From the IMG/VR virus record IMGVR_UViG_3300021959_000353, positions 1 to 25,255 of that record: a DNA stretch of 25,255 nucleotides; one strand, 5' to 3'. A program made the position numbers and the translations under genes. The notes below the pieces were generated by a model. It had not been told where the DNA came from. It worked only from the letters and a program-made list of their open reading frames with translations, and ran no database searches. The stretch comes from a virus (lineage: Duplodnaviria > Caudoviricetes). This document shows positions 868-12,818 of the stretch, one piece after another; the stretch's first letter is position 1, and each line of letters opens with the position of its first letter.

Positions 868-2997
868 ATGGCAGAACAAGACGAACTTATGTTTGAAACA
901 GATGAAGTTACAGCGGCAGAGGATGCAGAAGATAGCATCTTTGAGTCTGTATCAAGCGTTGTATCTTTTGTAAATGAGCGATTTAAACGTGCAGAGGATT
1001 CTCGTAGTGGTGATGAGGATCGTTGGCTACGTGCTTACAGAAACTATCGCGGTATTTATGGAACGGATGTTCAGTTCACTGACACTGAAAAGTCTCGTAT
1101 ATTTGTAAAGGTTACTAAAACAAAAACTCTCGCAGCCTACGGACAGATTGTTGATGTGTTGTTTGGTAACAATAAGTTTCCACTAACTATAGACCCCTCT
1201 GTTTTACCAGATGGTGTAGCTGAGTCAGTTCACATAAACATAGACCCTAACGCAGCACAGGCTGGAGAGGCTTTAACAGCGGTTACTAGAGATGATGCCC
1301 CAAAGCCTTATCTTATTGGCCCAGACACAGAACTACTTCCGGGTGAAACTATTGTAGACTTACAGAAACGTCTTGGCCCATTGACTGAGAAGCTTGCACC
1401 CGTAAGTGAGAAAGTTGTAGAGGGAGAGGGAACTACATCTACTACAGTAACATTTCATCCCGCTATGGTTGCTGCTAAGAAGATGGAAAAGAAGATCCAC
1501 GATCAGCTTGTAGAGTCAGGTGCTAATAAACATCTGCGCAGTATGGCTTTTGAAATGGCTCTTCTAGGCACTGGTGTTATGAAAGGCCCGTTTGCTGTAG
1601 ATAAAGAGTACCCTAATTGGAACGAAGAGGGTGAGTATGACCCACTAGTAAAGACTGTGCCATCTACAAGTCACGTTAGTGTGTGGAACTTTTACCCTGA
1701 CCCAGAAGCTACATCTATGGATGATGCAGAGTACGTTGTAGAGCGTCACAAGATGTCTCGCACTGAATTACGTAGTTTAAAACACCGTCCTTACTTTATG
1801 AGTGATGCTGTAGAGCTTGCCGTAGATAAAGGCCCAGACTACGATATGAAGTACTGGGAACAAACTATGGAAGACAGTGACACTGAGGCTTCTACAGAGC
1901 GCTGGGAAGTACTAGAGTTCTGGGGTTTTGTCGATACAGACCTACTTCAAGAGAATGGTGTATCTATTCCTAGTGAGTACAAGAACTTAGAAGAGCTTAA
2001 CTGTAACATCTGGGTTTGTAATGGTGAAGTTCTTCGCTTTGTGCTTAATCCTTTTAAGCCATCAACTATACCTTATTATGCAACACCATACGAACATAAC
2101 CCTTACTCATTCTTTGGGGTAGGTATTGCGGAAAATATGGATGATACGCAAACTCTTATGAATGGGTTTATGCGTATGGCTATTGACAATGCTGCATTAT
2201 CTGGTAATCTAATCATAGAAGTTGACGAAACTAATTTAGTTCCGGGGCAGGACTTAAGTGTGTATCCCGGGAAAGTGTTTCGAAGACAGGGGGGCGCTCC
2301 GGGGCAAGGCATTTTTGGGACCAAATTTCCCAATGTAGCTCAAGAAAATATGCAACTATTTGATAAGGCTAGAGTTTTAGCAGATGAAAGCACAGGTTTC
2401 CCAAGCTTTGCACACGGTCAGACTGGTGTTAGTGGAGTGGGGCGAACTGCTTCTGGCATCTCTATGCTTATGTCTGCAGCTAATGGCAGTATACGAAATG
2501 TTGTTAAAAACGTGGATGATTACCTTATACGTCCACTAGGCAAATCTTTCTTTGCATTTAATATGCAGTTTGACTTTGACTCAGACATTCGTGGTGATCT
2601 AGAGGTACGCGCATCAGGTACAGAAAGCTTAATGGCTAATGAGGTACGCTCACAGCGTCTGATGCAGTTCTTACAGGTAGCGCAGAATCCAACACTAGCA
2701 CCGTTTGCTAAGATGGACTACATTATACGTGAGATTGCTAAGTCTATGGATCTTGATCCTGATAAGGTCACAAATTCTATGCAAGATGCTGCTATACAGG
2801 CTGAGATCTTAAAGACCTTCCAAGCTCCACAACAGCCCCCTACAGGGCCAGAAGGCGTTCCAGCACCACAGGGTCAGGATCCTCAAGGACAAGGCCCACA
2901 GGGAGTAGCTGATACGTCAGGTGGCGGTGGTTCACAGATGGGTATTGGTACAGCACCAGCACCGGGGGAACAAGGGTTTACTGGTAATGTCGCTTAA
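868..2997 (+). CDS. Portal protein (podovirus type)
   Basis: ~709 aa from ATG 868 (preferred to TTG 862). Motifs GTGVMKGP, VSVWNFYPDP, FFGVGIAENMDDTQ, GVGRTASGISMLM and a Pro/Gln/Gly-rich C-tail. Follows terminase. Confidence 0.92.
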   Translation: MAEQDELMFETDEVTAAEDAEDSIFESVSSVVSFVNERFKRAEDSRSGDEDRWLRAYRNYRGIYGTDVQFTDTEKSRIFVKVTKTKTLAAYGQIVDVLFGNNKFPLTIDPSVLPDGVAESVHINIDPNAAQAGEALTAVTRDDAPKPYLIGPDTELLPGETIVDLQKRLGPLTEKLAPVSEKVVEGEGTTSTTVTFHPAMVAAKKMEKKIHDQLVESGANKHLRSMAFEMALLGTGVMKGPFAVDKEYPNWNEEGEYDPLVKTVPSTSHVSVWNFYPDPEATSMDDAEYVVERHKMSRTELRSLKHRPYFMSDAVELAVDKGPDYDMKYWEQTMEDSDTEASTERWEVLEFWGFVDTDLLQENGVSIPSEYKNLEELNCNIWVCNGEVLRFVLNPFKPSTIPYYATPYEHNPYSFFGVGIAENMDDTQTLMNGFMRMAIDNAALSGNLIIEVDETNLVPGQDLSVYPGKVFRRQGGAPGQGIFGTKFPNVAQENMQLFDKARVLADESTGFPSFAHGQTGVSGVGRTASGISMLMSAANGSIRNVVKNVDDYLIRPLGKSFFAFNMQFDFDSDIRGDLEVRASGTESLMANEVRSQRLMQFLQVAQNPTLAPFAKMDYIIREIAKSMDLDPDKVTNSMQDAAIQAEILKTFQAPQQPPTGPEGVPAPQGQDPQGQGPQGVADTSGGGGSQMGIGTAPAPGEQGFTGNVA

Positions 2998-3175
2998 ACA
3001 ATTTGCAAACAATAAGCAAGCTATGGATGAGTTTAATGAACTTATTGATGAACTTATAGCTACACAGCACAGGACTATGGAACAGGCGGGTTCTGTACAA
3101 GAAGTCTATTCAGCGCAGGGTGCTATTAGTACGCTAAGGCGGTTAAAGCTACTTAAGGGGATAGTGAATGGTTGA
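2987..3175 (+). CDS. Small helical protein downstream of portal (62 aa)
   Basis: ATG 2987 overlaps the portal end, with SD-like AAGGGT at 2972-2977. Sequence MSLKQFANNK...AQGAISTLRRLKLLK. A small gene at this position is common in podovirus head modules. The track start at 2921 is probably too long. Confidence 0.75.
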   Translation: MSLKQFANNKQAMDEFNELIDELIATQHRTMEQAGSVQEVYSAQGAISTLRRLKLLKGIVNG

Positions 3176-5879
3176 CTATCGTAAACGTTTATCTGATATG
3201 ACTCCAGAGGAAAGAGCAGAGGTAGCTCCTTCTGCAGATAACTTTTCTAAAGTGTTTGGTGATAGGACAGAGGAACCTATGTCAGTCACCGCTGCTGATA
3301 CAGCCGTAAGTTTAGCTACACCAGTAGACTCAGTAGTAGAAGTACAGAAAGAGTTACAAAAAGAAGAGCCTGATTATCTAAAGGTTGGTATGCTTGCAGG
3401 TGTTGAAGCTTTAGGAAGTATACCTGCACTTGGCCCAGTAGCAAAGAGTATGATACGTAAGGGTGCAGACTTAGTTAAACAGACTGACACTGTGATAGAC
3501 GGTACTACTAATATACCACCTGTACCTAAAAAAGAGGCATCTCCCTTTGATGTAGAGTATGACTATGACCTTACTCTTAAAATGGAAAATATGATTGATG
3601 AATGGGCAAAGGGTAATGTAACCAATGCTAATTTAAGAAAAAACCTTGCTACCCTAGATATTAAACTGCCTTATAGAATTAGCCCTAAAGCAGATCCTAG
3701 TAGTCTAGATATACAAATGCCAGACGGTACTATATATAAGGGTACGGGAGATGTACCATCAAAGCCTAGACCTCTTACTTTAGATGCTACCTCTGACGCT
3801 GTAGATGATTTAGGTTTTTCCGAAAAAGATCTAGCTGATTGGAAAAAAGTAAACTACGCAAAAGATAAGTTTAGAATACCACCAGACGATGAAATGGCGG
3901 CTGCAGCTACTAATCTTCGTGAGGGAAAGATAACATCAGAAGAGTTTAGAAAACTGTCAGATGAGAGACAGCCCATTAAACCTATTACAGAGATGCCAAA
4001 GTTTCCAACAAAAGAAGAGGTTGTAAAGTCTTTACACGCTACAGACCCAAGAAAAACAAAGAAAGGTGTTTTAGGTGTAAATAAATCTATTGAAGATGGT
4101 ACACTTATTTCTTCTAGACTAGATATACCTGCTTATAATAATTCAGATACTTGGGTTGTATCACTACACGATGGTTCTGTAAAAGACGGTAAAACTGTAG
4201 GTTATGGGCAGTCTGCCGTTCTTAATAATGTAAACTTCACCTCTAACCCCTTAGCAGCTTCAAAGATTGCCACAGGTTCAGCGAAAACTACTATTGCTAG
4301 AATGCAAGGTGAGTGGCAGAATATGGCCCCAGAAGAAGTCTATAAGACAGTAGAGAATCTGTTTGACGATCCTGAATGGGTACAAGTAGGTATGAATCCT
4401 TATAGAGCTTCTTACTTTTATGATAAAGCTGATGGTATGCCTGTTGTTTCGGCTGAACAAGTAATGCAAGTAGGCCCATTAGTATTTGCTAAAAGGGCAA
4501 AAAAGACAACACCTGATGACCCTCGATTTGAGTTTGAGAATAAAATTACAGGTGTTAAAGCAAATTTTGATAAAGGTGGAATGGCTATGGAAGAACAAAC
4601 TCAAATGGCCTTTGCGCTGGGCGGCTCTGTAGAAGAGGTAGATCCCATATCAGGTAATGAAGTACCACCGGGATCTCTTCCAGAAGAGGTACGTGATGAC
4701 ATTGATGCAAGGCTTAGTGAGGGTGAGTATGTCGTACCCGCTGATGTAGTACGGTACTACGGTGTTAAGTTCTTTGAGGATCTGCGTACACAAGCTAAGT
4801 CTGGCTTTGAAGATATGGAAGCTAATGGACGTATTGGTGGTCAACCTGTACCAGAGGAAAACTCTCTACCGTTTGACGTATCTGAACTACAAGTAGAAGA
4901 AGAGCCTGTACAGATGAACGAGGGTGGTTTTCTAGACAGAGAGGCTTTAGAGGCAAAGTTTCCTGCTTCCTTTATGGGTTCTGGTAGCCCAGCGCAGGAA
5001 TGGAAGACCTTTGAAAACGAAGCAGGTTTAACTATTACTATTCGTTACGTTAATGGTCAACCTATGTCACCCATTCCTGCAGGGTATACTGAGGTTGGTG
5101 CTAGGTCTGAGCAAGCTCTTGAAGCTCCAAGGGGTGATGACAGTGACCCACAGTTTGGTGATCCTAGTAACGCACCAGAGCCTGTTGATTTAAGTAAACT
5201 CTCTGAAGACGAGCTTGAAAAAATAGGTGACAAGGCTGCAACTATGGGTACTCTTGAGGAAATAGTTGGTTATGGTACTGGGCCTGCTCTTACTCAAATA
5301 ATGAGGATGACCAGAGAAGGTAGAGCAGCAAAGGTTAACTCTGAGGTTGCTAGTAGGTTATCGAGTGGTAAAAATGCTGACGGTACAGATCTAACGGAAA
5401 GTCAAATAACTCAGTTAGGAAAGATTTTTGATAAAACTGCAGACACAGAAGATACAGGTTCTAGGTTCTTTGGTGGTCAGAGGACTTTAACTGAGGGTTT
5501 ACAAGATACTTCTGGAGATAAACAAGTCGGATTTGCTGACACATTCTTAGGAGATTTACTTGGGTTTGATGGAACTCCCGGCATACAAGCTAAAGATAAA
5601 GACGGTAATAAGTTAGGTTTAGATGCATCTATTTCTGGTAAACGAAGAAAACCTGTTGAAAAACCTGCAGTAGGTAGCGGTAGCAATAATGATGGTGGTA
5701 GCGACGATAGTTACAGTGCAGCTGATGCAATGAGAGATAGATTAGATAGACAAACTAAAGAAGAAGGTCAGTCTGGCGGTTTCCAAGGAAGTGTAACTAA
5801 TGGGTCTGTTTACGCAGGAGGTAATAGAGCAGAAGGTGGTTTAATGCTCAAGAAAGACAAGAAGAAAAAGAAGAAATAA
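3168..5879 (+). CDS. 903-aa modular protein, probably virion-associated/internal; function unknown
   Basis: Long ORF between portal and scaffold. It has a globular-looking domain at ~4098-4493, a block DPISGNEVPPGSLPEEVRDDIDARLSEGEYVVPADVVRYYG, four xxxGG motifs and a KKDKKKKKK C-terminus. Confidence 0.8.
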   Translation: MVDYRKRLSDMTPEERAEVAPSADNFSKVFGDRTEEPMSVTAADTAVSLATPVDSVVEVQKELQKEEPDYLKVGMLAGVEALGSIPALGPVAKSMIRKGADLVKQTDTVIDGTTNIPPVPKKEASPFDVEYDYDLTLKMENMIDEWAKGNVTNANLRKNLATLDIKLPYRISPKADPSSLDIQMPDGTIYKGTGDVPSKPRPLTLDATSDAVDDLGFSEKDLADWKKVNYAKDKFRIPPDDEMAAAATNLREGKITSEEFRKLSDERQPIKPITEMPKFPTKEEVVKSLHATDPRKTKKGVLGVNKSIEDGTLISSRLDIPAYNNSDTWVVSLHDGSVKDGKTVGYGQSAVLNNVNFTSNPLAASKIATGSAKTTIARMQGEWQNMAPEEVYKTVENLFDDPEWVQVGMNPYRASYFYDKADGMPVVSAEQVMQVGPLVFAKRAKKTTPDDPRFEFENKITGVKANFDKGGMAMEEQTQMAFALGGSVEEVDPISGNEVPPGSLPEEVRDDIDARLSEGEYVVPADVVRYYGVKFFEDLRTQAKSGFEDMEANGRIGGQPVPEENSLPFDVSELQVEEEPVQMNEGGFLDREALEAKFPASFMGSGSPAQEWKTFENEAGLTITIRYVNGQPMSPIPAGYTEVGARSEQALEAPRGDDSDPQFGDPSNAPEPVDLSKLSEDELEKIGDKAATMGTLEEIVGYGTGPALTQIMRMTREGRAAKVNSEVASRLSSGKNADGTDLTESQITQLGKIFDKTADTEDTGSRFFGGQRTLTEGLQDTSGDKQVGFADTFLGDLLGFDGTPGIQAKDKDGNKLGLDASISGKRRKPVEKPAVGSGSNNDGGSDDSYSAADAMRDRLDRQTKEEGQSGGFQGSVTNGSVYAGGNRAEGGLMLKKDKKKKKK

Positions 5880-5882
5880 TAA

Positions 5883-5908
5883 GGCTACCCGGCAGTAATG
5901 CTGGCCCC
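5883..5908 (+). promoter_or_regulatory. Structured RNA element in scaffold leader (CUAC/CC internal loop capped by a GNRA hairpin)
   Basis: GG(5883-84) pairs with CC(5907-08). CUAC(5885-88) lies opposite CC(5905-06). Stem CCGGCA(5889-94)/UGCUGG(5899-5904) is closed by a GUAA tetraloop. It ends just before SD AAGGAA (5915-5920). Confidence 0.6.
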
Positions 5909-5927
5909 AACATAAAGGAACTACAAT

Positions 5928-6875
5928 ATGTCTATGACAGAACAAACTATTATTAAAGCTGACAGTTATGCACACGAGCGTAACAAAGAACTTCTTGAAA
6001 AAGAGCAACGTGAACTAGATGCACTGTTAAAAGGTGAACAGGGCGATGAAGAAGCAAAAGATAATCAGGAACCCGATAGCGAAAGCGTTGAGGACACCCA
6101 AGTTTCAGATGAGAGTAATACGGAACAAAAAGAAACACGGTCAGTGGAATCCCAAGAGTCCGAAACGGATGATTCAGGAACAGATGGACTAAGCGCTGAA
6201 GAGAAATCTTTTAAAAAGCGATACGGTGATATACGTAAGCTCTTACAGAATAAGGAAAAAGATTGGAATGAAAAGTTTGAAAAGCTACAAGGACAACTTG
6301 AAAAAGCTTCTAAGAATGAACTGGTTCTTCCCAAATCTAAGGAAGAGATTGAAGCTTGGACAGCTAAGTACCCTGATGTTGCGGGTATTGTCGAAGCTAT
6401 TGCAGAAAATAAAGCTGCTGAAAAAGCTTCTTCCTTGGACACGCGACTCCAAGAAATAGAAGAGCTACGTACTCAAGCTAAGAAAGAGAAAGCTGAAGCG
6501 GAGCTTATGTCTTTACACCCTGACTTTGAAGAGATTCGCTCCTCAGACGAGTTTCATAACTGGGCAGAAAAACAACCTAAAGTTGTACAAGATGCTTTGT
6601 ATGAAAACTCAGAGGATGCTAAATCTGTAGCAGTAGCTATTGACCTCTATAAGTCACACAAGGGTATTAAAGCTAAGTCTACTAGTAGTTCAGATAAGGC
6701 TGCTGCCTCTTCTGTTAAAACTAAGGGTAGAACAACTGTAAACGATGATGAGAGTAAAAACTTCTGGCGTGAATCAACTGTTGCTAAAATGAGTGACAAA
6801 GAGTTTGAGAAACATCACGAAGAAATACACGAAGCTCAGAAATCTGGTAAATTTATTTATGATTTGTCAAAATAA
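5928..6875 (+). CDS. Capsid scaffolding protein
   Basis: 315 aa with an acidic disordered N-terminus, FKKRYGD followed by coiled coil, HPDFEEI..SDEFHNW, and a C-terminal helix MSDKEFEKHHEEIHEAQKSG. Lies immediately before the capsid gene. SD AAGGAA is 7 nt upstream. Confidence 0.85.
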   Translation: MSMTEQTIIKADSYAHERNKELLEKEQRELDALLKGEQGDEEAKDNQEPDSESVEDTQVSDESNTEQKETRSVESQESETDDSGTDGLSAEEKSFKKRYGDIRKLLQNKEKDWNEKFEKLQGQLEKASKNELVLPKSKEEIEAWTAKYPDVAGIVEAIAENKAAEKASSLDTRLQEIEELRTQAKKEKAEAELMSLHPDFEEIRSSDEFHNWAEKQPKVVQDALYENSEDAKSVAVAIDLYKSHKGIKAKSTSSSDKAAASSVKTKGRTTVNDDESKNFWRESTVAKMSDKEFEKHHEEIHEAQKSGKFIYDLSK

Positions 6876-6878
6876 CTA

Positions 6879-6906
6879 TTGACAATAGCTGCAAGTTTAG
6901 TATAAC
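6879..6906 (+). promoter_or_regulatory. Sigma70-type promoter for the capsid operon
   Basis: Perfect TTGACA (6879-6884), 16-nt spacer and TATAAC (6901-6906) at the start of the only long intergenic region. Confidence 0.7.
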
Positions 6907-6951
6907 TTGTATAGTATGCACTTAAAATGTGTATTTAAACTAAGACTCTAG

Positions 6952-7080
6952 CCACTAAAAGACTACCCAGACACGTTTAGCCCTTATTAGATACGGTAGG
7001 CATACCTTAATAATAAGCTACCTAGATAAGTTTTGGCCTCTGTTGTGGATATTGATCTGTAAAACTCAACGGTCATATCT
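6952..7080 (+). promoter_or_regulatory. Structured 5' leader of the major capsid mRNA (long hairpin with two CUAC/CC loops, plus a second hairpin next to the SD)
   Basis: Pairings by eye: AGA6960-62/UCU7039-41, CCAGA6967-71/UUUGG7032-36, GUUUAG6975-80/CUAGAU7022-27, CUUAUUA6983-89/UAAUAAG7011-17, GGUA6995-98/UACC7003-06. A second hairpin spans 7048-7079. SD AAGGAG is at 7083-7088. Confidence 0.6.
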
Positions 7081-7095
7081 ATAAGGAGATTAATT

Positions 7096-8166
7096 ATGGC
7101 TGCATTTGGAAAAGCTAATAGCTATACCAACCTTGACAATGGAGTATTCTCCAGCGTTATCTACTCAAAGCAGGCACAGATTGCGTTTCGCAAGGCTGCT
7201 ACTGTAAATGCAATTACTAACTCAGAATATTTTGGTGAGATTGCGAACCAAGGGGATACAGTGCGTATTCTTAAGGAGCCAGATATCACTGTAAATGCAT
7301 TGCTACGTGGTACAACCGTTTCGGCGCAAGACCTCGTTGACAATGACTTTCAGTTGACTATCGACAAAGCCAACTACTTTGCCTTCAAGCTTGACGATAT
7401 TGAAGAGCAGCAAGCCCATCACGACTTTATGCGCTTGTCATCTGATCGTGCAGCATATAAAATGGCTGACGCTATGGATGCTGACGTATTGTCATATATG
7501 TCTGGTTACACTACTGCGGGTGCTGTAGTTAGTTCCGTAAGCGGTACTGCTTCACACCAAACTGCAGGTGACTTGACGGGTGAACTTCTGACTGCTAACA
7601 AGTTGGATATGTCAGACTTCGGAAACATTACCACTTCTGCTTCTGCAGGTACAACTGGTGACTCAATTCCGTTGGCTCCTCGCTTCGGTGGTGCAACAGC
7701 CGCATCAACCGCCACAGCAACACCTCTCCAAGTTGTAGCCCGTATGGGTCGCATTATGGATCAGGCTAATGTTGATACTCGTGGTCGTTGGCTGTGTGTT
7801 GACGCCGTATTTATGGAAATGTTGAAAGACGAAGATTCTCGCGTATTGAACGCAGACTTCGGTGGTGCAGGACTGCAAAACGGTCTGGTACTTAACAATC
7901 TTCACGGTTTCCGTATTTACCAGTCAAACAACCTTCCTGCGAAGGGAACTGGCCCCGGAACCACAGGTACTACTGCACAGGACGATAACTATGGCGTTAT
8001 TGTAGCTGGACACGACTCCGCTGTTGCAACTGCACAGCAACTCAACAAAGTTGAGACTTATCGTGACCCAGATTCATTCGCTGATATTGTTCGCGGTATG
8101 CACCTTTACGGGCGTAAAATTCTACGTCCAGAGGCTCTGGTAACTGCAGTATACAACGCTGCTTAA
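7096..8166 (+). CDS. Major capsid protein (HK97 fold, P22-coat-like family)
   Basis: 356 aa with GEIANQGDTVRI, LTIDKANYFAFKLDDIE, GRWLCVD, GFRIYQSNNLP and FADIVRGMHLYGRKILRPE. Strong SD, and a terminator follows. Confidence 0.95.
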   Translation: MAAFGKANSYTNLDNGVFSSVIYSKQAQIAFRKAATVNAITNSEYFGEIANQGDTVRILKEPDITVNALLRGTTVSAQDLVDNDFQLTIDKANYFAFKLDDIEEQQAHHDFMRLSSDRAAYKMADAMDADVLSYMSGYTTAGAVVSSVSGTASHQTAGDLTGELLTANKLDMSDFGNITTSASAGTTGDSIPLAPRFGGATAASTATATPLQVVARMGRIMDQANVDTRGRWLCVDAVFMEMLKDEDSRVLNADFGGAGLQNGLVLNNLHGFRIYQSNNLPAKGTGPGTTGTTAQDDNYGVIVAGHDSAVATAQQLNKVETYRDPDSFADIVRGMHLYGRKILRPEALVTAVYNAA

Positions 8167-8174
8167 ATAGTTAG

Positions 8175-8212
8175 AGAGTAGGCTGCTTAACTGTGGCCTA
8201 CTCTTTTTCTTA
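8175..8212 (+). terminator. Rho-independent terminator after the capsid gene
   Basis: Stem AGAGTAGGCTGC(8175-86)/GTGGCCTACTCT(8193-8204) with two G-U pairs, loop TTAACT, followed by TTTTCTT. Confidence 0.85.
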
Positions 8213-8239
8213 GTCTTGCATTGAAAAAGGATACCTCTT

Positions 8240-8677
8240 ATGGCAATCACTACAGCAATGTGCAGCAGTTTCAAGCAAGAGTTGCTTGGAGGTGTTCACG
8301 ATCTTGATACGGACACTTTGAAAATAGCTTTAATCAAAGCCAGTCCGTCAGGCACTTACGATGCCACAACTACTAACTACTCTGACGTTACAGGTAACTC
8401 TGATGAAGCTTCTGGTACTGGTTATAGTGCTGGCGGTGGAACTTTAGATTCACCTGCTATCTCACTTTCTGGAACTACAGCTTTTGTTGACTTTGCTGAT
8501 GAAGCTTTCAGCAACGTAACAGTTTCTGCAGATGGTTGTATTATTTACAACTCTTCTCAGTCAAACAAAGCTATTGCAGTATTTGACTTTGGTGGTACTG
8601 TTAGTGCAACCTCTGGTACACTCACTGTACAGTTCCCAACAGCCGATGCTACAAACGCTGTTATTCGTCTTACCTAA
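8240..8677 (+). CDS. Virion structural protein (145 aa, beta-rich; fibre base or decoration candidate)
   Basis: MAITTAMCSSFKQELL...LKIAL...GTGYSAGG...VFDFGG pattern of small structural proteins that follow capsid genes. SD AAGGA upstream. Confidence 0.7.
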   Translation: MAITTAMCSSFKQELLGGVHDLDTDTLKIALIKASPSGTYDATTTNYSDVTGNSDEASGTGYSAGGGTLDSPAISLSGTTAFVDFADEAFSNVTVSADGCIIYNSSQSNKAIAVFDFGGTVSATSGTLTVQFPTADATNAVIRLT

Positions 8678-8693: not shown

Positions 8694-9398
8694 ATGGCAA
8701 AGTTTGCTGACCGTGTAAAAGTAAGCACAAGCACTACTGGAACAGGTACAATCACTCTAGGATCTGCGGAGACTGGTTTTGTGGTTGTACCTTCTTCTTT
8801 AGATGGAGAGACTCTAAGATATGTAATCGAAGATGGGGGATCTCCTGCAACTGCTTTCGAGATTGGGACTGGAGTTTTTACCAACTCTGGAAGCACTCTC
8901 ACACGGTCACTTACTTCCTCTTCTACAGGAAGTCTACTTAACTTATCTGGTAGCGCAAAAGTATTTATATCGCCTACTGCAGATGATTTACAGTTTGTTC
9001 AAGTTTATAGTTCTACTAGTGATCTACCATCAGCTTCAAGTAATCACGGTAGAATAACTCACGTACACGGCGATGGTGCAATGTACTTTGCACACGCTGG
9101 TAGTTGGGTCAGATTACAAAACTACGACTCAAATCTTCAATCCTTTGTGGACACATTTACACTACCTACATCTGATGGTACTGCAGATCAGGTTTTAAAA
9201 ACTAATGGCAGCGGAACTCTTCAATTCGGCACAATAACTTCTTCTGCGGGGTTTAGCGCAGTAAACGTGGCCTCCCGCACTTTAACCACTGACACCACAG
9301 TAGGAGCCACAGAAAGCGCTCTAACAGTTGGGCCGCTTACTATTGCCAGCGGCGTAACTTTAACTATTGCGGCTGGGGGAAGGCACGTAATCCTATGA
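8694..9398 (+). CDS. Fibre stalk/adaptor protein (234 aa)
   Basis: N-terminal [18 protein letters not shown], His-rich [29 protein letters not shown], fibre repeat [18 protein letters not shown], and C-terminal [22 protein letters not shown]. Confidence 0.7.
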
Positions 9399-10549
9399 CC
9401 GAAATTCGTGTAGATACAATCGTTGATGCCGCTGGAACAGGCGCACCCAACTTCACTACCGCCCCAACCGTGGGTGGTGTTGCTCTAGGCAGTATAGGTA
9501 CTTCCAGTTTTACGAGTAGTGGTACTGAGCCATCAAGCCCTAGTGATGGTGCAGTTTGGTGGGATACTACAAACAGCGAATTAATGATCTATGCAAACAG
9601 TGAGTGGCAAACGGTTACTTTGGGAGCTTCACCACCCGCTTTACCTTCGCATTACGGCGATAGGGGAATACAGGGGCCGGGATATAGCGCAGTTGAGTAT
9701 TCAAGTACTAGCAATTATGGTAATACCATTGATTATTGGGATTTTACCACCCTTGGTAATGCTTCTGACTTTGGAGATGATGCACATTATATCTCGTCTA
9801 GTTCTTGTACGGCGGGATCTGGTCGAGGATTTATTATCTCTGGAAATATACAAGGTACTTTGACTCCGAATATTCGGACAATTCTTACTGCCACTTTAGG
9901 TAATTCAAGTCAGTATGGTGATATAGGAGTAGCTAAACAAGACACTTGTGCAGACAATGATGCAGACCGAATGTTTGTTTCTGGATTTACAAGCACCGAT
10001 AACCGTATTGAGTATAAAAGTATAGAATCCTCTGCAAACACTGCTGATTTTGGAGACATTACAGACAACGATTATCAAGCAATGGGAGTGGCTAGTGATG
10101 GCACTAGAGGCTTCTTTATGGGCGGGAACGGCAATAACGGCCTGACTGACCGAATTTGTTCTATTGTAATACAAACAACGGGTAACGCTACTGATTGGGG
10201 TGATCTTGCACTCGCTTGTATGAACACAAAAGCCTGTGGTAACGATACTAGGGTTTTGCATTGTAGGGGCAGAAAGCAAGGTTTTGTTGAATTTTCTGAA
10301 ATATATTATTTCGACACATCTTCTGCAGGTAACGCATCTAGCTTTGGGGATATGGGTGATGACACTTGGTTGGGTGGGATGTCGTGTAATGAAACTAGAG
10401 CCTGTTATTCTGGTGGTACTGCGAATTATCCTAATAAAAGAGATGAGATTACGTATGTCACAATAGACACTCTTGGTAACGGAACCGATTTTGGGGATCT
10501 AACCAAAGAACGGGGTAATACTGATTCAATGTCGGGGGCCGCTGCGTAA
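9395..10549 (+). CDS. Kelch-like six-repeat beta-propeller fibre/adhesin protein, paralog 1
   Basis: N-terminal MTEIRVDTI and [15 protein letters not shown] module, Pro-rich linker, then six ~47-aa repeats ending in GNAxDFGD-like motifs. ATGA overlap with the upstream gene. Confidence 0.75.
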
Positions 10550-11703
10550 TGTCTGATATTACAGTAGATAAAATTAACAATTTAGCTGGCACAGGTGCTG
10601 CTAATTTCACCTACGGAATTAAGGTTGGAGGAAGTTTGCAAGGCCTTGGTGGCGGCGCATTTACTAATAGTGACACTGAACCCACTAGCCCCAGCGATGG
10701 TGATGTTTGGTATCAACCAACGCTTAGGTATTTAGACTATCGGGCTGGGGGTGAGTGGAAGCGAGTTGTTGGCAGTGGAACGGCAAATCCACTTCCTCCT
10801 GTCTGGTTTGGTGATAGAGCATTGTTTACGTTAGGTTTTGTAAGCGCTGGCCGAGACAATAGAATACAGTACTACGACTTAGATGTTGGAGCGACTGTTA
10901 ACACTTTCGGTAATTTATTAGCAGATTCTGCATATGTTACTGGTGCTTCTGGTGGGGGTCGAGGTCTATTTGCGGGCGCAGCGACAAGCTCAGGGGTCGT
11001 TAATACAATACAATACATCACAATAGCCTCGACTGGAAACTCTACTGACTTTGGTGATCTGACAGAGGTTTCTTATACCATTGCTTCAGCATCTAATGGC
11101 AACAAAGCTATTTATGCTATGAATGATAATAACAAAACGAGTTTAATCCAAGAAGTCACCATAGATACCGCTGGCAACGCCACCGCTTGGTCTGGCACTT
11201 TAACTCAGGCCAAAAGTAATGGTTGCGGTGCTTCTGATGGTACTAAGGGTTTCTTCTTTGGTGGGAGAACGGCTTCTAGTTCTACTGCTATTAATGAAAT
11301 AGATTACGTGACTATTGCTACGGATGGTAATGCCTCAGACTGGGGAAATCTTGCTACGGCAAGAAAAGATACGGGCGGCAACTCCGCTTGTGGAACCAGT
11401 AGCCGTATACTTATTGGTGGGGGAACTAATTCATCAGGAAATTATACTGCAACTATTGATTATATAAATCCAGCAAGTGCTGGTAATGCGTCTAGTTTTG
11501 GTAATTTAGCAAACGCTCTTTGGTATACTGGCTCTACGAACAACGATACACACGCAATTTGGGTTCAAGGCCTAAATGCTTCAGTTCAATTCCAAAATTA
11601 CGCTCATAGAGTTACAATAGATACTACTGGAAATGCCTCACTTTGGGGTACTACCGCTGAGGCGGGGTACGGCATAGGTGCTACATCAGGAGCGCATTCA
11701 TAA
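10549..11703 (+). CDS. Kelch-like six-repeat beta-propeller fibre/adhesin protein, paralog 2
   Basis: MSDITVDKI and TEPTSPSDGDVWY module, PLPP linker, six hhhGG...I(D/Q)Y.TI...GN...FG(D/N)L repeats. TAATG coupling. Confidence 0.75.
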   Translation: MSDITVDKINNLAGTGAANFTYGIKVGGSLQGLGGGAFTNSDTEPTSPSDGDVWYQPTLRYLDYRAGGEWKRVVGSGTANPLPPVWFGDRALFTLGFVSAGRDNRIQYYDLDVGATVNTFGNLLADSAYVTGASGGGRGLFAGAATSSGVVNTIQYITIASTGNSTDFGDLTEVSYTIASASNGNKAIYAMNDNNKTSLIQEVTIDTAGNATAWSGTLTQAKSNGCGASDGTKGFFFGGRTASSSTAINEIDYVTIATDGNASDWGNLATARKDTGGNSACGTSSRILIGGGTNSSGNYTATIDYINPASAGNASSFGNLANALWYTGSTNNDTHAIWVQGLNASVQFQNYAHRVTIDTTGNASLWGTTAEAGYGIGATSGAHS

Positions 11704-12818
11704 TGAGTACATTAAAAGTAAACACCATTAAAGATAACGGCACAGCGATTGACCTTGAAAATGGTATCTTAGTCGGTGGTACCTCACCTACACAAAATTA
11801 CACTGCCAGTGGAACTGAGCCTAGTAGCGGGAATGCAAACGGCGACTATTGGTGGGATACTGGCAATGAAAAACTTTATCAGTATTTTAATGGTGAATTT
11901 CGAGCGATTACTACAGTACCCCCGCCACCACCACTGTCGCATATTGGCGATAGGATGCTTGTAGCGGGTGGTAACGGTCCCACATCTGCAATTCGTTACA
12001 TAGATTTAACTGGTTCTGGTGGCTCAACCTCATTTGGATCTTTAACAAGTGCTAGAAATGGAGTCTCAGGCTCATCAAGTGGTAGTCGAGGGATATTTGC
12101 AGGGGGTATAATAAGCAATTACATTAACAACATCGATTATGTTACAATCTCTACGCCGGGAAATTCTACCGATTTTGGCGATCTGACAAGTATTCAAACG
12201 GTTTCTTCTGCATCTGATGGCACTACCACAATCTTTGCAATGTGGGATGGTGCTACTACATATAACGGCTGGATTTCAGAAATTACAATAGCAACTACTG
12301 GAAACGCTAGTGTTAGGAGCGGCCTCCTAACTCAGACTAGGAGTAATGCTTGCGGTGCTTCTGACGGCACTAAAGGTTTCTTTTTTGGCGGGTACGCCTC
12401 TAGCGGTCGTGTAAATACTATAGATTATGTAACTATTGCCACAGCTTCTAGTGCAATTGACTGGGGGGATCTTACTTCAGTTAGGTATCAACAAGGACAA
12501 AATTCGGCTTGTGGAAATAGTAGTCGTGTTCTTCACGCTGGTGGTAATGATGGAATTACTTATACCAATACTATCGAATACATTAATCCCGCTAGTGCTG
12601 GAAACGCCACTGACTTTGGTGATCTGCTTGCAGGAATGAGGTTTAGCAGTTCTGCTTGTAACAGTACTAAAGCTTGTTGGGTTGCTGGGAAATCAACAAC
12701 GGCGTATTTGAACACTCAACAAATAGTCACCATAGATACCACTGGGAATGCCACATCTTTTGGAACTTACAATGCTACGTTGCAGAGTCTGGGGGCTTGT
12801 TCGGGGTTCCCTTCGTAA
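11703..12818 (+). CDS. Kelch-like six-repeat beta-propeller fibre/adhesin protein, paralog 3
   Basis: MSTLKVNTI and TEPSSGNANGDYWWDT module, PPPPP linker, six repeats starting RMLVAGG, RGIFAGG, TTIFAMW, KGFFFGG, RVLHAGG and KACWVAG. TAATG coupling. Confidence 0.75.
   Translation: MSTLKVNTIKDNGTAIDLENGILVGGTSPTQNYTASGTEPSSGNANGDYWWDTGNEKLYQYFNGEFRAITTVPPPPPLSHIGDRMLVAGGNGPTSAIRYIDLTGSGGSTSFGSLTSARNGVSGSSSGSRGIFAGGIISNYINNIDYVTISTPGNSTDFGDLTSIQTVSSASDGTTTIFAMWDGATTYNGWISEITIATTGNASVRSGLLTQTRSNACGASDGTKGFFFGGYASSGRVNTIDYVTIATASSAIDWGDLTSVRYQQGQNSACGNSSRVLHAGGNDGITYTNTIEYINPASAGNATDFGDLLAGMRFSSSACNSTKACWVAGKSTTAYLNTQQIVTIDTTGNATSFGTYNATLQSLGACSGFPS

Follow-up and report, generated by a model that had tools for sequence, protein, structure and literature searches.

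The locus raises the question of why a phage should carry the same small asymmetric internal loop ahead of two of its head genes, once before a scaffold-like gene and twice before the coat gene, and which protein would read it there. The loops lie in the window, by which we mean the whole stretch of 25,255 nucleotides that was analysed, a 25-kb fragment of an HMO-2011-type phage as judged by gene order and coat similarity. On the sequence comparisons set out below, the module that they form is a real, conserved and uncatalogued cis-regulatory RNA. Our main reading, to which we give a probability of about 0.58, is that unassembled scaffold protein binds the loops and thereby blocks its own translation, and that in the window's clade this binding is predicted to free the Shine-Dalgarno (SD) sequence of the coat gene.

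Carrier Phage and Sampled Loci

The genes in the window follow the order terminase, portal, 62-aa gene, 903-aa gene, 315-aa gene and coat, which matches CRP-2 and HMO-2011. The assignment to the HMO-2011 type rests on the capsid/portal/terminase order and on a capsid like those of the group's isolates, the DNA polymerase gene lying outside the window; the coat shares 73% identity with that of Roseobacter phage CRP-2 and 60% with that of HMO-2011. The group has been ranked among the most abundant phages of the sea (PMC9038755, in the part of that text available). Three tandem, repeat-rich paralogous genes of 371-384 aa each were seen in the tail region (9395-12818), and 3' of portal (2987-3175) lies the gene of a 62-aa helical protein without a family name, which is conserved in Roseobacter, Pelagibacter, rhizobial, Vibrio and Aeromonas phages and is present but unannotated in HTVC115P.

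For comparison we assembled 320 IMG/VR loci (the 80 best matches to any one of four coat queries) and, P22 aside, 20 named phage records. Most relatives carry TTGACA..TA(T/A)AAC, with a -10 box ending in C, 5' of the coat leader; the promoter scanner used demands a final T in this box, so that the putative promoter of the window is absent from its list. A similar -10-like box was also seen in 26 of 35 clade leaders, there just 5' of the scaffold hairpin, and is rare in other clades. Contigs from 4 of 24 metatranscriptome runs were available: in X12 a contig covers 6859-7097 at a depth of 143 against 11-16 on scaffold pieces, although contigs cannot rank genes, and in X7 a contig bridges 6961-7524, although contigs cannot show transcript ends. 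Further peculiarities of single loci include an HNH-type gene between scaffold and coat (L335), spacers of 865-886 nt (L150, L160), and several coat matches stretched by ∼240-270 extra bases, suggesting insertions (L187, L189, L190, L234, L239, L244).

Three Copies of the Loop in the Window

Re-reading of the sequence bore out the coordinates given for all three copies in the preliminary description (Table 1). Copy 1 ends 7 nt 5' of AGGA (5916) and 19 nt 5' of the AUG. In the coat leader the element extends beyond 7048 as far as the SD and start codon: when the loops are formed, its 5' arm is paired to GUGG 7045-48 and UCU 7039-41, and in the free minimum free energy (MFE) structure the UAGCCA of this arm pairs with the start region UGGCUG 7097-7102.

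Table 1. Features of the scaffold-coat region, with positions in the window.
Feature	Position	Strand	Basis or remark
Copy 1, single-loop hairpin GG[CUAC]CCGGCA-GUAA-UGCUGG[CC]CC	5883..5908	+	Precedes scaffold-like gene; strands GG-CUAC 5883-88 / CC-CC 5905-08
Scaffold-like protein, 315 aa	5928..6875	+	phrog_13678 (unknown function); all-helical coiled-coil model
Basic segment F95-KKRYGDIR103-KL105, start of helix 90-129	6210..6242	+	Predicted RNA-reading element
Putative sigma70-type promoter TTGACA-16 nt-TATAAC	6879..6906	+	Sequence; transcript start near 6913 assumed
Small 5' hairpin of coat leader	6916..6936	+	Predicted fold; similar hairpins in relatives
5' arm UAGCCAC..AAGA	6949..6962	+	Predicted folds
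Head-to-head loop pair (copies 2 and 3) with variable apical hairpin	6960..7041	+	Anchored counts, folding scan
Copy 2, first strand	6960..6971	+	AGA 6960-62, CUAC 6963-66, CCAGA 6967-71
Copy 3, first strand	6975..6989	+	GUUUAG 6975-80, CC 6981-82, CUUAUUA 6983-89
Copy 3, second strand	7011..7027	+	UAAUAAG 7011-17, CUAC 7018-21, CUAGAU 7022-27
Copy 2, second strand	7032..7041	+	UUUGG 7032-36, CC 7037-38, UCU 7039-41
Switch strand CCUCUGUUGUGGAUAUUG	7037..7054	+	Closes copy 2 and outer stem, or pairs with 7071-7088 including SD
Coat ribosome-binding site (RBS)	7071..7100	+	Anti-start GUCAUA 7072-77, SD AAGGAG 7083-88, AUG 7096
Major capsid (coat) protein, 356 aa	7096..8166	+	phrog_267, E 1e-55
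Intrinsic-terminator-like hairpin, 3' of coat gene	8173..8206	+	Terminator scan

Folding of the single sequence says little about these copies: z-scores were not significant on either strand, and 6952-7048 alone was not beyond chance (fold z = -1.69, 14 of 200 shuffles as good). The MFE structure of the window draws copy 2 in a shifted register, the register described earlier costing 1.1 kcal/mol. A loose descriptor of the loop gave 51 matches in the window, hence a folding filter was added, after which 3 of 23 candidates remained on the + strand, exactly the three copies already noted (cost 0-1.1); the - strand kept 2 of 23, which were of lower quality. Both for the window and for the CRP-2 genome as a whole, the cheapest sites (0-1.1 kcal) proved to be the three orthologous copies, and from the HMO-2011 stretch came one orthologous copy and one unrelated site. 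Inside the primase gene of CRP-2 (L339:7131-7150) we also observed a CC/CAC motif-like site that folds well at a cost of 1.2 and resembles the coat-leader loops of the HMO clade, and which may be due to chance.

Conservation of the Module

The pairing in relatives carries the case. Pairs were counted in 38 distinct leaders of the window's clade, which stand for 78 loci without a miss; the leaders were anchored on sequence alone, and the 38 rows are related to each other and not independent. At A2 the pair is kept in 38/38 (CG in 23, UA in 15), at A3 in 36/38 and at B1 and B2 in 38/38 each, while B3 is paired in all 38 (UA 18, AU 15, GC 5) against 17 expected by permutation. The cross-strand double changes at A2 and B3 uphold the claim that the pairs adjoining the loops vary and yet stay paired; although the single-sequence fold is near chance, the observation is thus confirmed by the cross-strand pairing of the relatives. 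Two separate hairpins instead of the nested pair were rejected, as pairing then held in 15/38 and 23/38 leaders at the worst positions. RNAalifold on a MAFFT alignment (A1, 29 rows) returned only the GUGGAUAU/AUAUCUAU helix, without compensatory change; we ascribe this poor yield to misalignment of the variable middle, and the sequence-anchored counts were therefore used instead.

Of 50 clade leaders, 48 have the head-to-head pair, where shuffled sequences would give 0.2; it also occurs in 27/58 leaders of the CRP-235 clade, both rhizobial leaders (2/2) and 7/64 of the HMO clade under the strict descriptor, this last score being so low because the descriptor missed the 3-nt CAC form. It was absent from the short spacers of the HTVC115P clade (0/26). 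The copy in the scaffold leader is present in 146 of 187 distinct leaders (3.7 expected), or in 147 under a looser rule, by which 8 loci fail, 5 of them showing a variant; its loop ends 11-28 nt 5' of the start codon. Recorded hosts of these phages comprise Rhodobacteraceae, Puniceispirillum, Pelagibacter, rhizobia, Vibrio and Aeromonas, and we estimate that one form of the hairpin occurs in ∼1,100 IMG/VR stretches.

A census of MFE loops gave the module consensus R[N0-2 Y A C]Y / R[M C]Y, with 383 of 471 loops being motif-like (360 leader segments) compared to 11/178 in coding controls. Among these 383 loops the long strand reads CUAC in 155, CAC in 52, AUAC in 39, ACUAC in 34, UUAC in 27 and CCAC in 24, the short strand CC in 342 and AC in 39, and the pair that closes the loop after AC consists of pyrimidine and purine, in this order, in 360 (CG 299, UA 61). 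The loop letters had been described as invariant, which is correct for the three copies of the window and does not extend to the relatives, where many forms occur.

The module comes as one copy, as two copies 5 bp apart, or as two to three copies in the coat leader. Its loops are spaced by 13-16 nt per strand in the clade's coat leaders, by ∼5 bp in scaffold leaders of the HMO clade and by 7-8 nt in CRP-3, while in many scaffold leaders there is just a single loop. Since the spacing varies by clade and single-loop leaders are frequent, we take the unit to be a single site; that a dimeric protein, which the pseudo-twofold arrangement was earlier said to suit, would be needed is therefore not established.

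Several loci depart from this scheme. In L087, L331, L332, L343, L088 and L329 the coat gene follows 20-64 nt after the scaffold gene; these phages have no coat-side loops, and several have a second loop in the scaffold leader, in some as a CUAC/CA variant. No loop was seen 5' of the gene in scaffold position in L330 (Slicky01), L341 (Pun_Y3) and L334; Slicky01 keeps the KRY segment without the loop, and control may have been lost there.

The Scaffold-Like Protein

The 315-aa protein is a likely scaffold, as suggested by its position 5' of the coat gene, by a structural model that is all-helical with long coiled coils (mean pLDDT 77.7, pTM 0.42), and by a language-model search that gave a lead to PF09306 Phage-scaffold (0.92, 129 shared features). 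Searches of Pfam, PDB and Foldseek with this protein returned no match, and comparison with P22 gp8 revealed no similarity (hhalign probability 0.25%). Its basic segment contains Arg103 (codon 6234-6236), the residue that covaries with the first base of the loop.

Residue 103 and the Probable Reader of the Loops

Scaffold and coat leaders change together. When the short strand in the scaffold leader is AC, the coat leader also has an AC loop in 16 of 17 cases, these rows forming a single lineage around CRP-738 (one branch, 100/100), and when it is CC an AC loop occurs in the coat leader in 0 of 61. That sites 1 kb apart change together points to a shared reader. In the AC lineage 6 of 85 conserved scaffold columns are changed, and the basic segment, which here reads KKRYGDLRRH and supplies 12 of the 85, accounts for 3 of the 6 (p = 0.034, post hoc); of the coat columns 1 of 170 is changed.

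A further indication comes from residue 103, which was picked out post hoc and is the best among all scaffold and coat columns: in 158 distinct rows it is Gln in 30 of 30 with a purine-first loop and in 1 of the 128 others, compared to 26/30 with 17/128 false for the best coat column. Loops that start with C/U are thus accompanied by Arg or Lys and those that start with A/G by Gln, with a single exception in L027 (Q with CUAC). Loci chosen by RNA pattern alone gave the same picture, with Gln in 39/39 readable purine-first loci (41 found, 2 unreadable; 7 of the 41 are contigs already sampled and the rest may stem from the Q lineages already known, the tree still showing 4 changes) and Arg in 93/93 readable CUAC loci (120 fetched, 27 unreadable). 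CHOED (AUAC) and Aeromonas phage MQM1 (ACAC), read by eye, have Gln too; these two and Aeromonas 1233 stand outside the column table and the trees owing to their segment pattern. In the coat leader, 4-nt loops are purine-first in 34/46 with Gln and in 10/131 with Arg, the 10 exceptions with R103 including phiM6 and RHph_I3_11.

A scaffold tree from which the segment was masked requires 4 changes in either trait and a coat tree 6, and independent pairs agree in 3/4 and 5/6, respectively, with none in the opposite direction; with ∼4-6 independent origins the sign tests did not reach significance (p 0.25, 0.0625, 0.25). Searches with purine-first patterns found 6 loci in the HMO clade, all without the scaffold segment, and 0 in the CRP-235 clade, so that no independent origin was added. 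The flanking residues differ among the Gln lineages (GDIQRH, ADIQR, ADVQRH, QDIQRH). Leader and codon 103 are ∼350 nt apart and recombine together. As a side observation, scaffold and coat trees conflict for L046 versus L063 and for L019, suggesting recombination between both genes.

The link between residue and base is accordingly a correlation between linked sites, which recurs with different flanks at a basic patch heading a coiled coil. We consider it quite probable, from these sequence patterns, that the scaffold is the reader of the loops. The more specific proposal, that it would be a sequence-specific RNA-binder with a bZIP-like basic segment and a code of Arg103 for C/U and Gln103 for A/G, repressing itself and activating coat via an anti-SD switch, is a tentative one.

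Predicted Effects on Translation

In the proposed circuit the basic KKRYxDxR segment 5' of the coiled coil would contact the loop. Scaffold bound at its own leader would then occlude the ribosome site and repress its own synthesis; the SD of the scaffold leader is mostly open with or without the loop, and together with the loop's position 11-28 nt from the AUG this makes occlusion likely.

The coat leader would respond differently in the window's clade, where the 3' strand of the outer loop is an anti-SD sequence. The coat-leader loop is ∼43 nt from the SD, and in the free MFE structure of the window 7037-7054 pairs over the SD while the 5' arm covers the start codon. Binding would hold 7037-7054 in the stems closing the loop, releasing the SD and activating coat. 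In the models, forcing the loops lowers the cost of SD opening in 37 of 39 clade leaders by a median of 3.5 kcal, the median cost going from 4.9 to 1.1 kcal. This release is obtained by forcing copy 2 alone (36/38), and hardly by random blocks (2/114) or at all by copy 3 alone (0/38). The duplex between strand and RBS beats shuffles in 19/20 clade leaders and in 2/2 rhizobial phages, and it beats the RBS of the next gene in 17/17. Cognate-swap tests were marginal (65/5000, 177/3000), and co-variation between switch strand and 5' arm was not seen (4951/5000). In other clades SD release was close to zero in the median, with values below -1 in 5/33 HMO and 10/41 CRP-235 leaders, and anti-SD complementarity was found in 10/30 leaders of the HMO clade and 0/40 of the CRP-235 clade (2/34 with another segment). 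Coat activation is therefore a prediction from folding models for the window's clade only.

The net effect would be less scaffold and more coat whenever scaffold is in excess, so that the two are balanced for procapsid assembly; with spare scaffold as the signal, activation would be the sign that makes sense for coat. The module common to both leaders and the residue-base covariation make a feedback circuit setting head-protein stoichiometry, as suggested in the preliminary description, the best reading. For the full circuit, combining self-repression with coat release, our confidence stays below even odds.

Alternative Explanations

It is unlikely, in our view, that the scaffold reads the loops and yet represses both genes or leaves coat initiation unaffected. 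This alternative draws on the anti-start sequence, which is complementary to UAUGGC 7095-7100 and would cover the AUG: such a helix (GYCAU with AUGGC) stands out at z < -2 in all three long-leader clades (16/18, 35/56, 34/40) and in 0/14 of the short HTVC115P-clade leaders, and in 27/39 clade leaders it is stronger, and the AUG costlier to open, in the bound model than in the arm-off state. It could, in these models, offset coat activation, and the near-zero SD release in two clades fits the same view. The cost of opening the whole RBS, however, is lower with the loops formed in 35/39 clade leaders and higher in 1, and relative to the arm-off state a drop is seen in each of the four groups (32/39, 18/34, 40/48, 2/2), a comparison biased towards release. 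That another protein reads the loops, be it coat, the 62-aa protein or a host RNA-binding protein, with residue 103 merely travelling with the leader, we regard as quite unlikely. Homologues of the 62-aa protein occur in 4/5 further records, all four motif-bearing, Pun_Y3 lacks both the homologue and the loop, and the scan for covarying columns covered scaffold and coat; leader and codon 103 are also physically linked. But linkage fails to explain the repeated co-origin amid different flanking residues, no coat column comes close, and the wide span of hosts argues against a narrow host factor.

The loops might instead be assembly signals with little effect on initiation, either a scaffold tether nucleating co-translational procapsid formation or a pRNA-like RNA, in keeping with the conserved spacing of the two to three sites that long coat leaders carry and with the weak switch prediction in two clades. 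We find this very unlikely, given that the scaffold-leader copy abuts the SD and that phages with short coat leaders do without coat-side loops (0/26). A discrete structural RNA used in assembly, considered in the preliminary description, is likewise unsupported, since no terminator-like site follows the leader that could end a small RNA (the first + strand one at a gene end is that 3' of coat) and since the 3' strand of the leader element is complementary to the coat RBS. RNase III-type processing elements occur in T7 leaders, and a long pseudo-symmetric rod 5' of a highly expressed gene could similarly be a processing or stability element, or else a signal at the DNA level. RNase III needs about two helical turns, though, and the stem of copy 1 with its 5-6 bp is too short while most of the rod's middle part is unpaired; the G-U pairs in the rod fit RNA of the + strand, and residue-base covariation is predicted by neither idea, so that both together appear highly improbable.

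The balance of scaffold and coat in tailed phages is an old question, for which an RNA site, a candidate reading segment and a residue/base swap are now specified. Whether the scaffold binds the loops is thereby open to direct binding or reporter experiments in the cultured phages CRP-2, CRP-738, phiM6 and CHOED. The motif also points to an unannotated gene family as the likely scaffold, and an orthogonal protein/RNA pair would make a compact translational switch. If true, the tentative proposal of a residue/base code with opposite effects on the two genes would amount to a servo that sets the stoichiometry of two genes during capsid assembly, in a marine phage group ranked among the most abundant.

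Comparison With Known Systems

As to novelty, the module matches no described Rfam family: none of the covariance models of Rfam 15, including GP20-a/b, reached its gathering threshold, with 4 weak matches far below threshold in window 5700-8400, none on 6952-7048, and 0 in the loci of five relatives. GP20 is a scaffold family. GP20-a (RF02991), GP20-b (RF03003) and six more csRNAs lie 5' of GP20 genes, and DNAVirus_7287 (48 sequences, gut samples only) lies 5' of P22_CoatProtein genes, according to the available part of Fremin et al. 2023 (PMC10690425). Like the module, GP20-a/b and DNAVirus_7287 are predicted structured RNAs directly 5' of phage structural genes. A description of the module was not found in the portions available of the published literature (including PMC5737381 and PMC6316719); the alignments of Fremin 2023 and Weinberg 2017 may hold an unnamed version, and such a match may be among the 8,495 candidates of the former (PMC10690425).

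The loop resembles in part the C-loop, which is described, in the available text of PMC9516175, as an asymmetric internal loop in a hairpin, often C-first, with two non-Watson-Crick pairs forming two triads and with roles in protein binding and translational control. In the 383-loop census the module likewise appears as an asymmetric internal loop in a hairpin with an often C-first long strand, and its CAC/CC form with a C-G closing pair permits the C-G trans WC/Hoogsteen pair. Most copies differ in having a long strand of 4-5 nt, and the second C of the short strand is nearly fixed.

The gene 8 scaffolding protein of P22 reportedly autoregulates its synthesis. Its N-terminus has been implicated in translational autoregulation (bioRxiv 10.1101/2022.12.13.520362, as far as that text is available), and no RNA site for it was found described in the available parts of the literature searched. 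The likeness would lie in a scaffold that is implicated in P22, and predicted here, to control translation of its own gene via an N-terminal region; the HMO-2011 coat is also annotated in its record as P22 coat family. In P22, however, inspection of the gene 8 leader by eye showed no YAC/CC loop, and the coat gene follows directly without a leader, whereas here a second set of sites precedes coat, with a predicted effect of opposite sign. By analogy the module would work like P22 scaffold autoregulation, of which it is not a homologue.

A wider parallel is offered by T4 RegA and MS2 coat protein, which act on autogenous translational operators. Such an operator is also described for T4 gp32 (PMC10690425, in the part available). 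In all three, as predicted here, the mRNA leader folds into a structure at the ribosome site to which the encoded protein binds; the module differs from them in its RNA fold and in that one module would serve two genes, with repression predicted for the one and SD release for the other.
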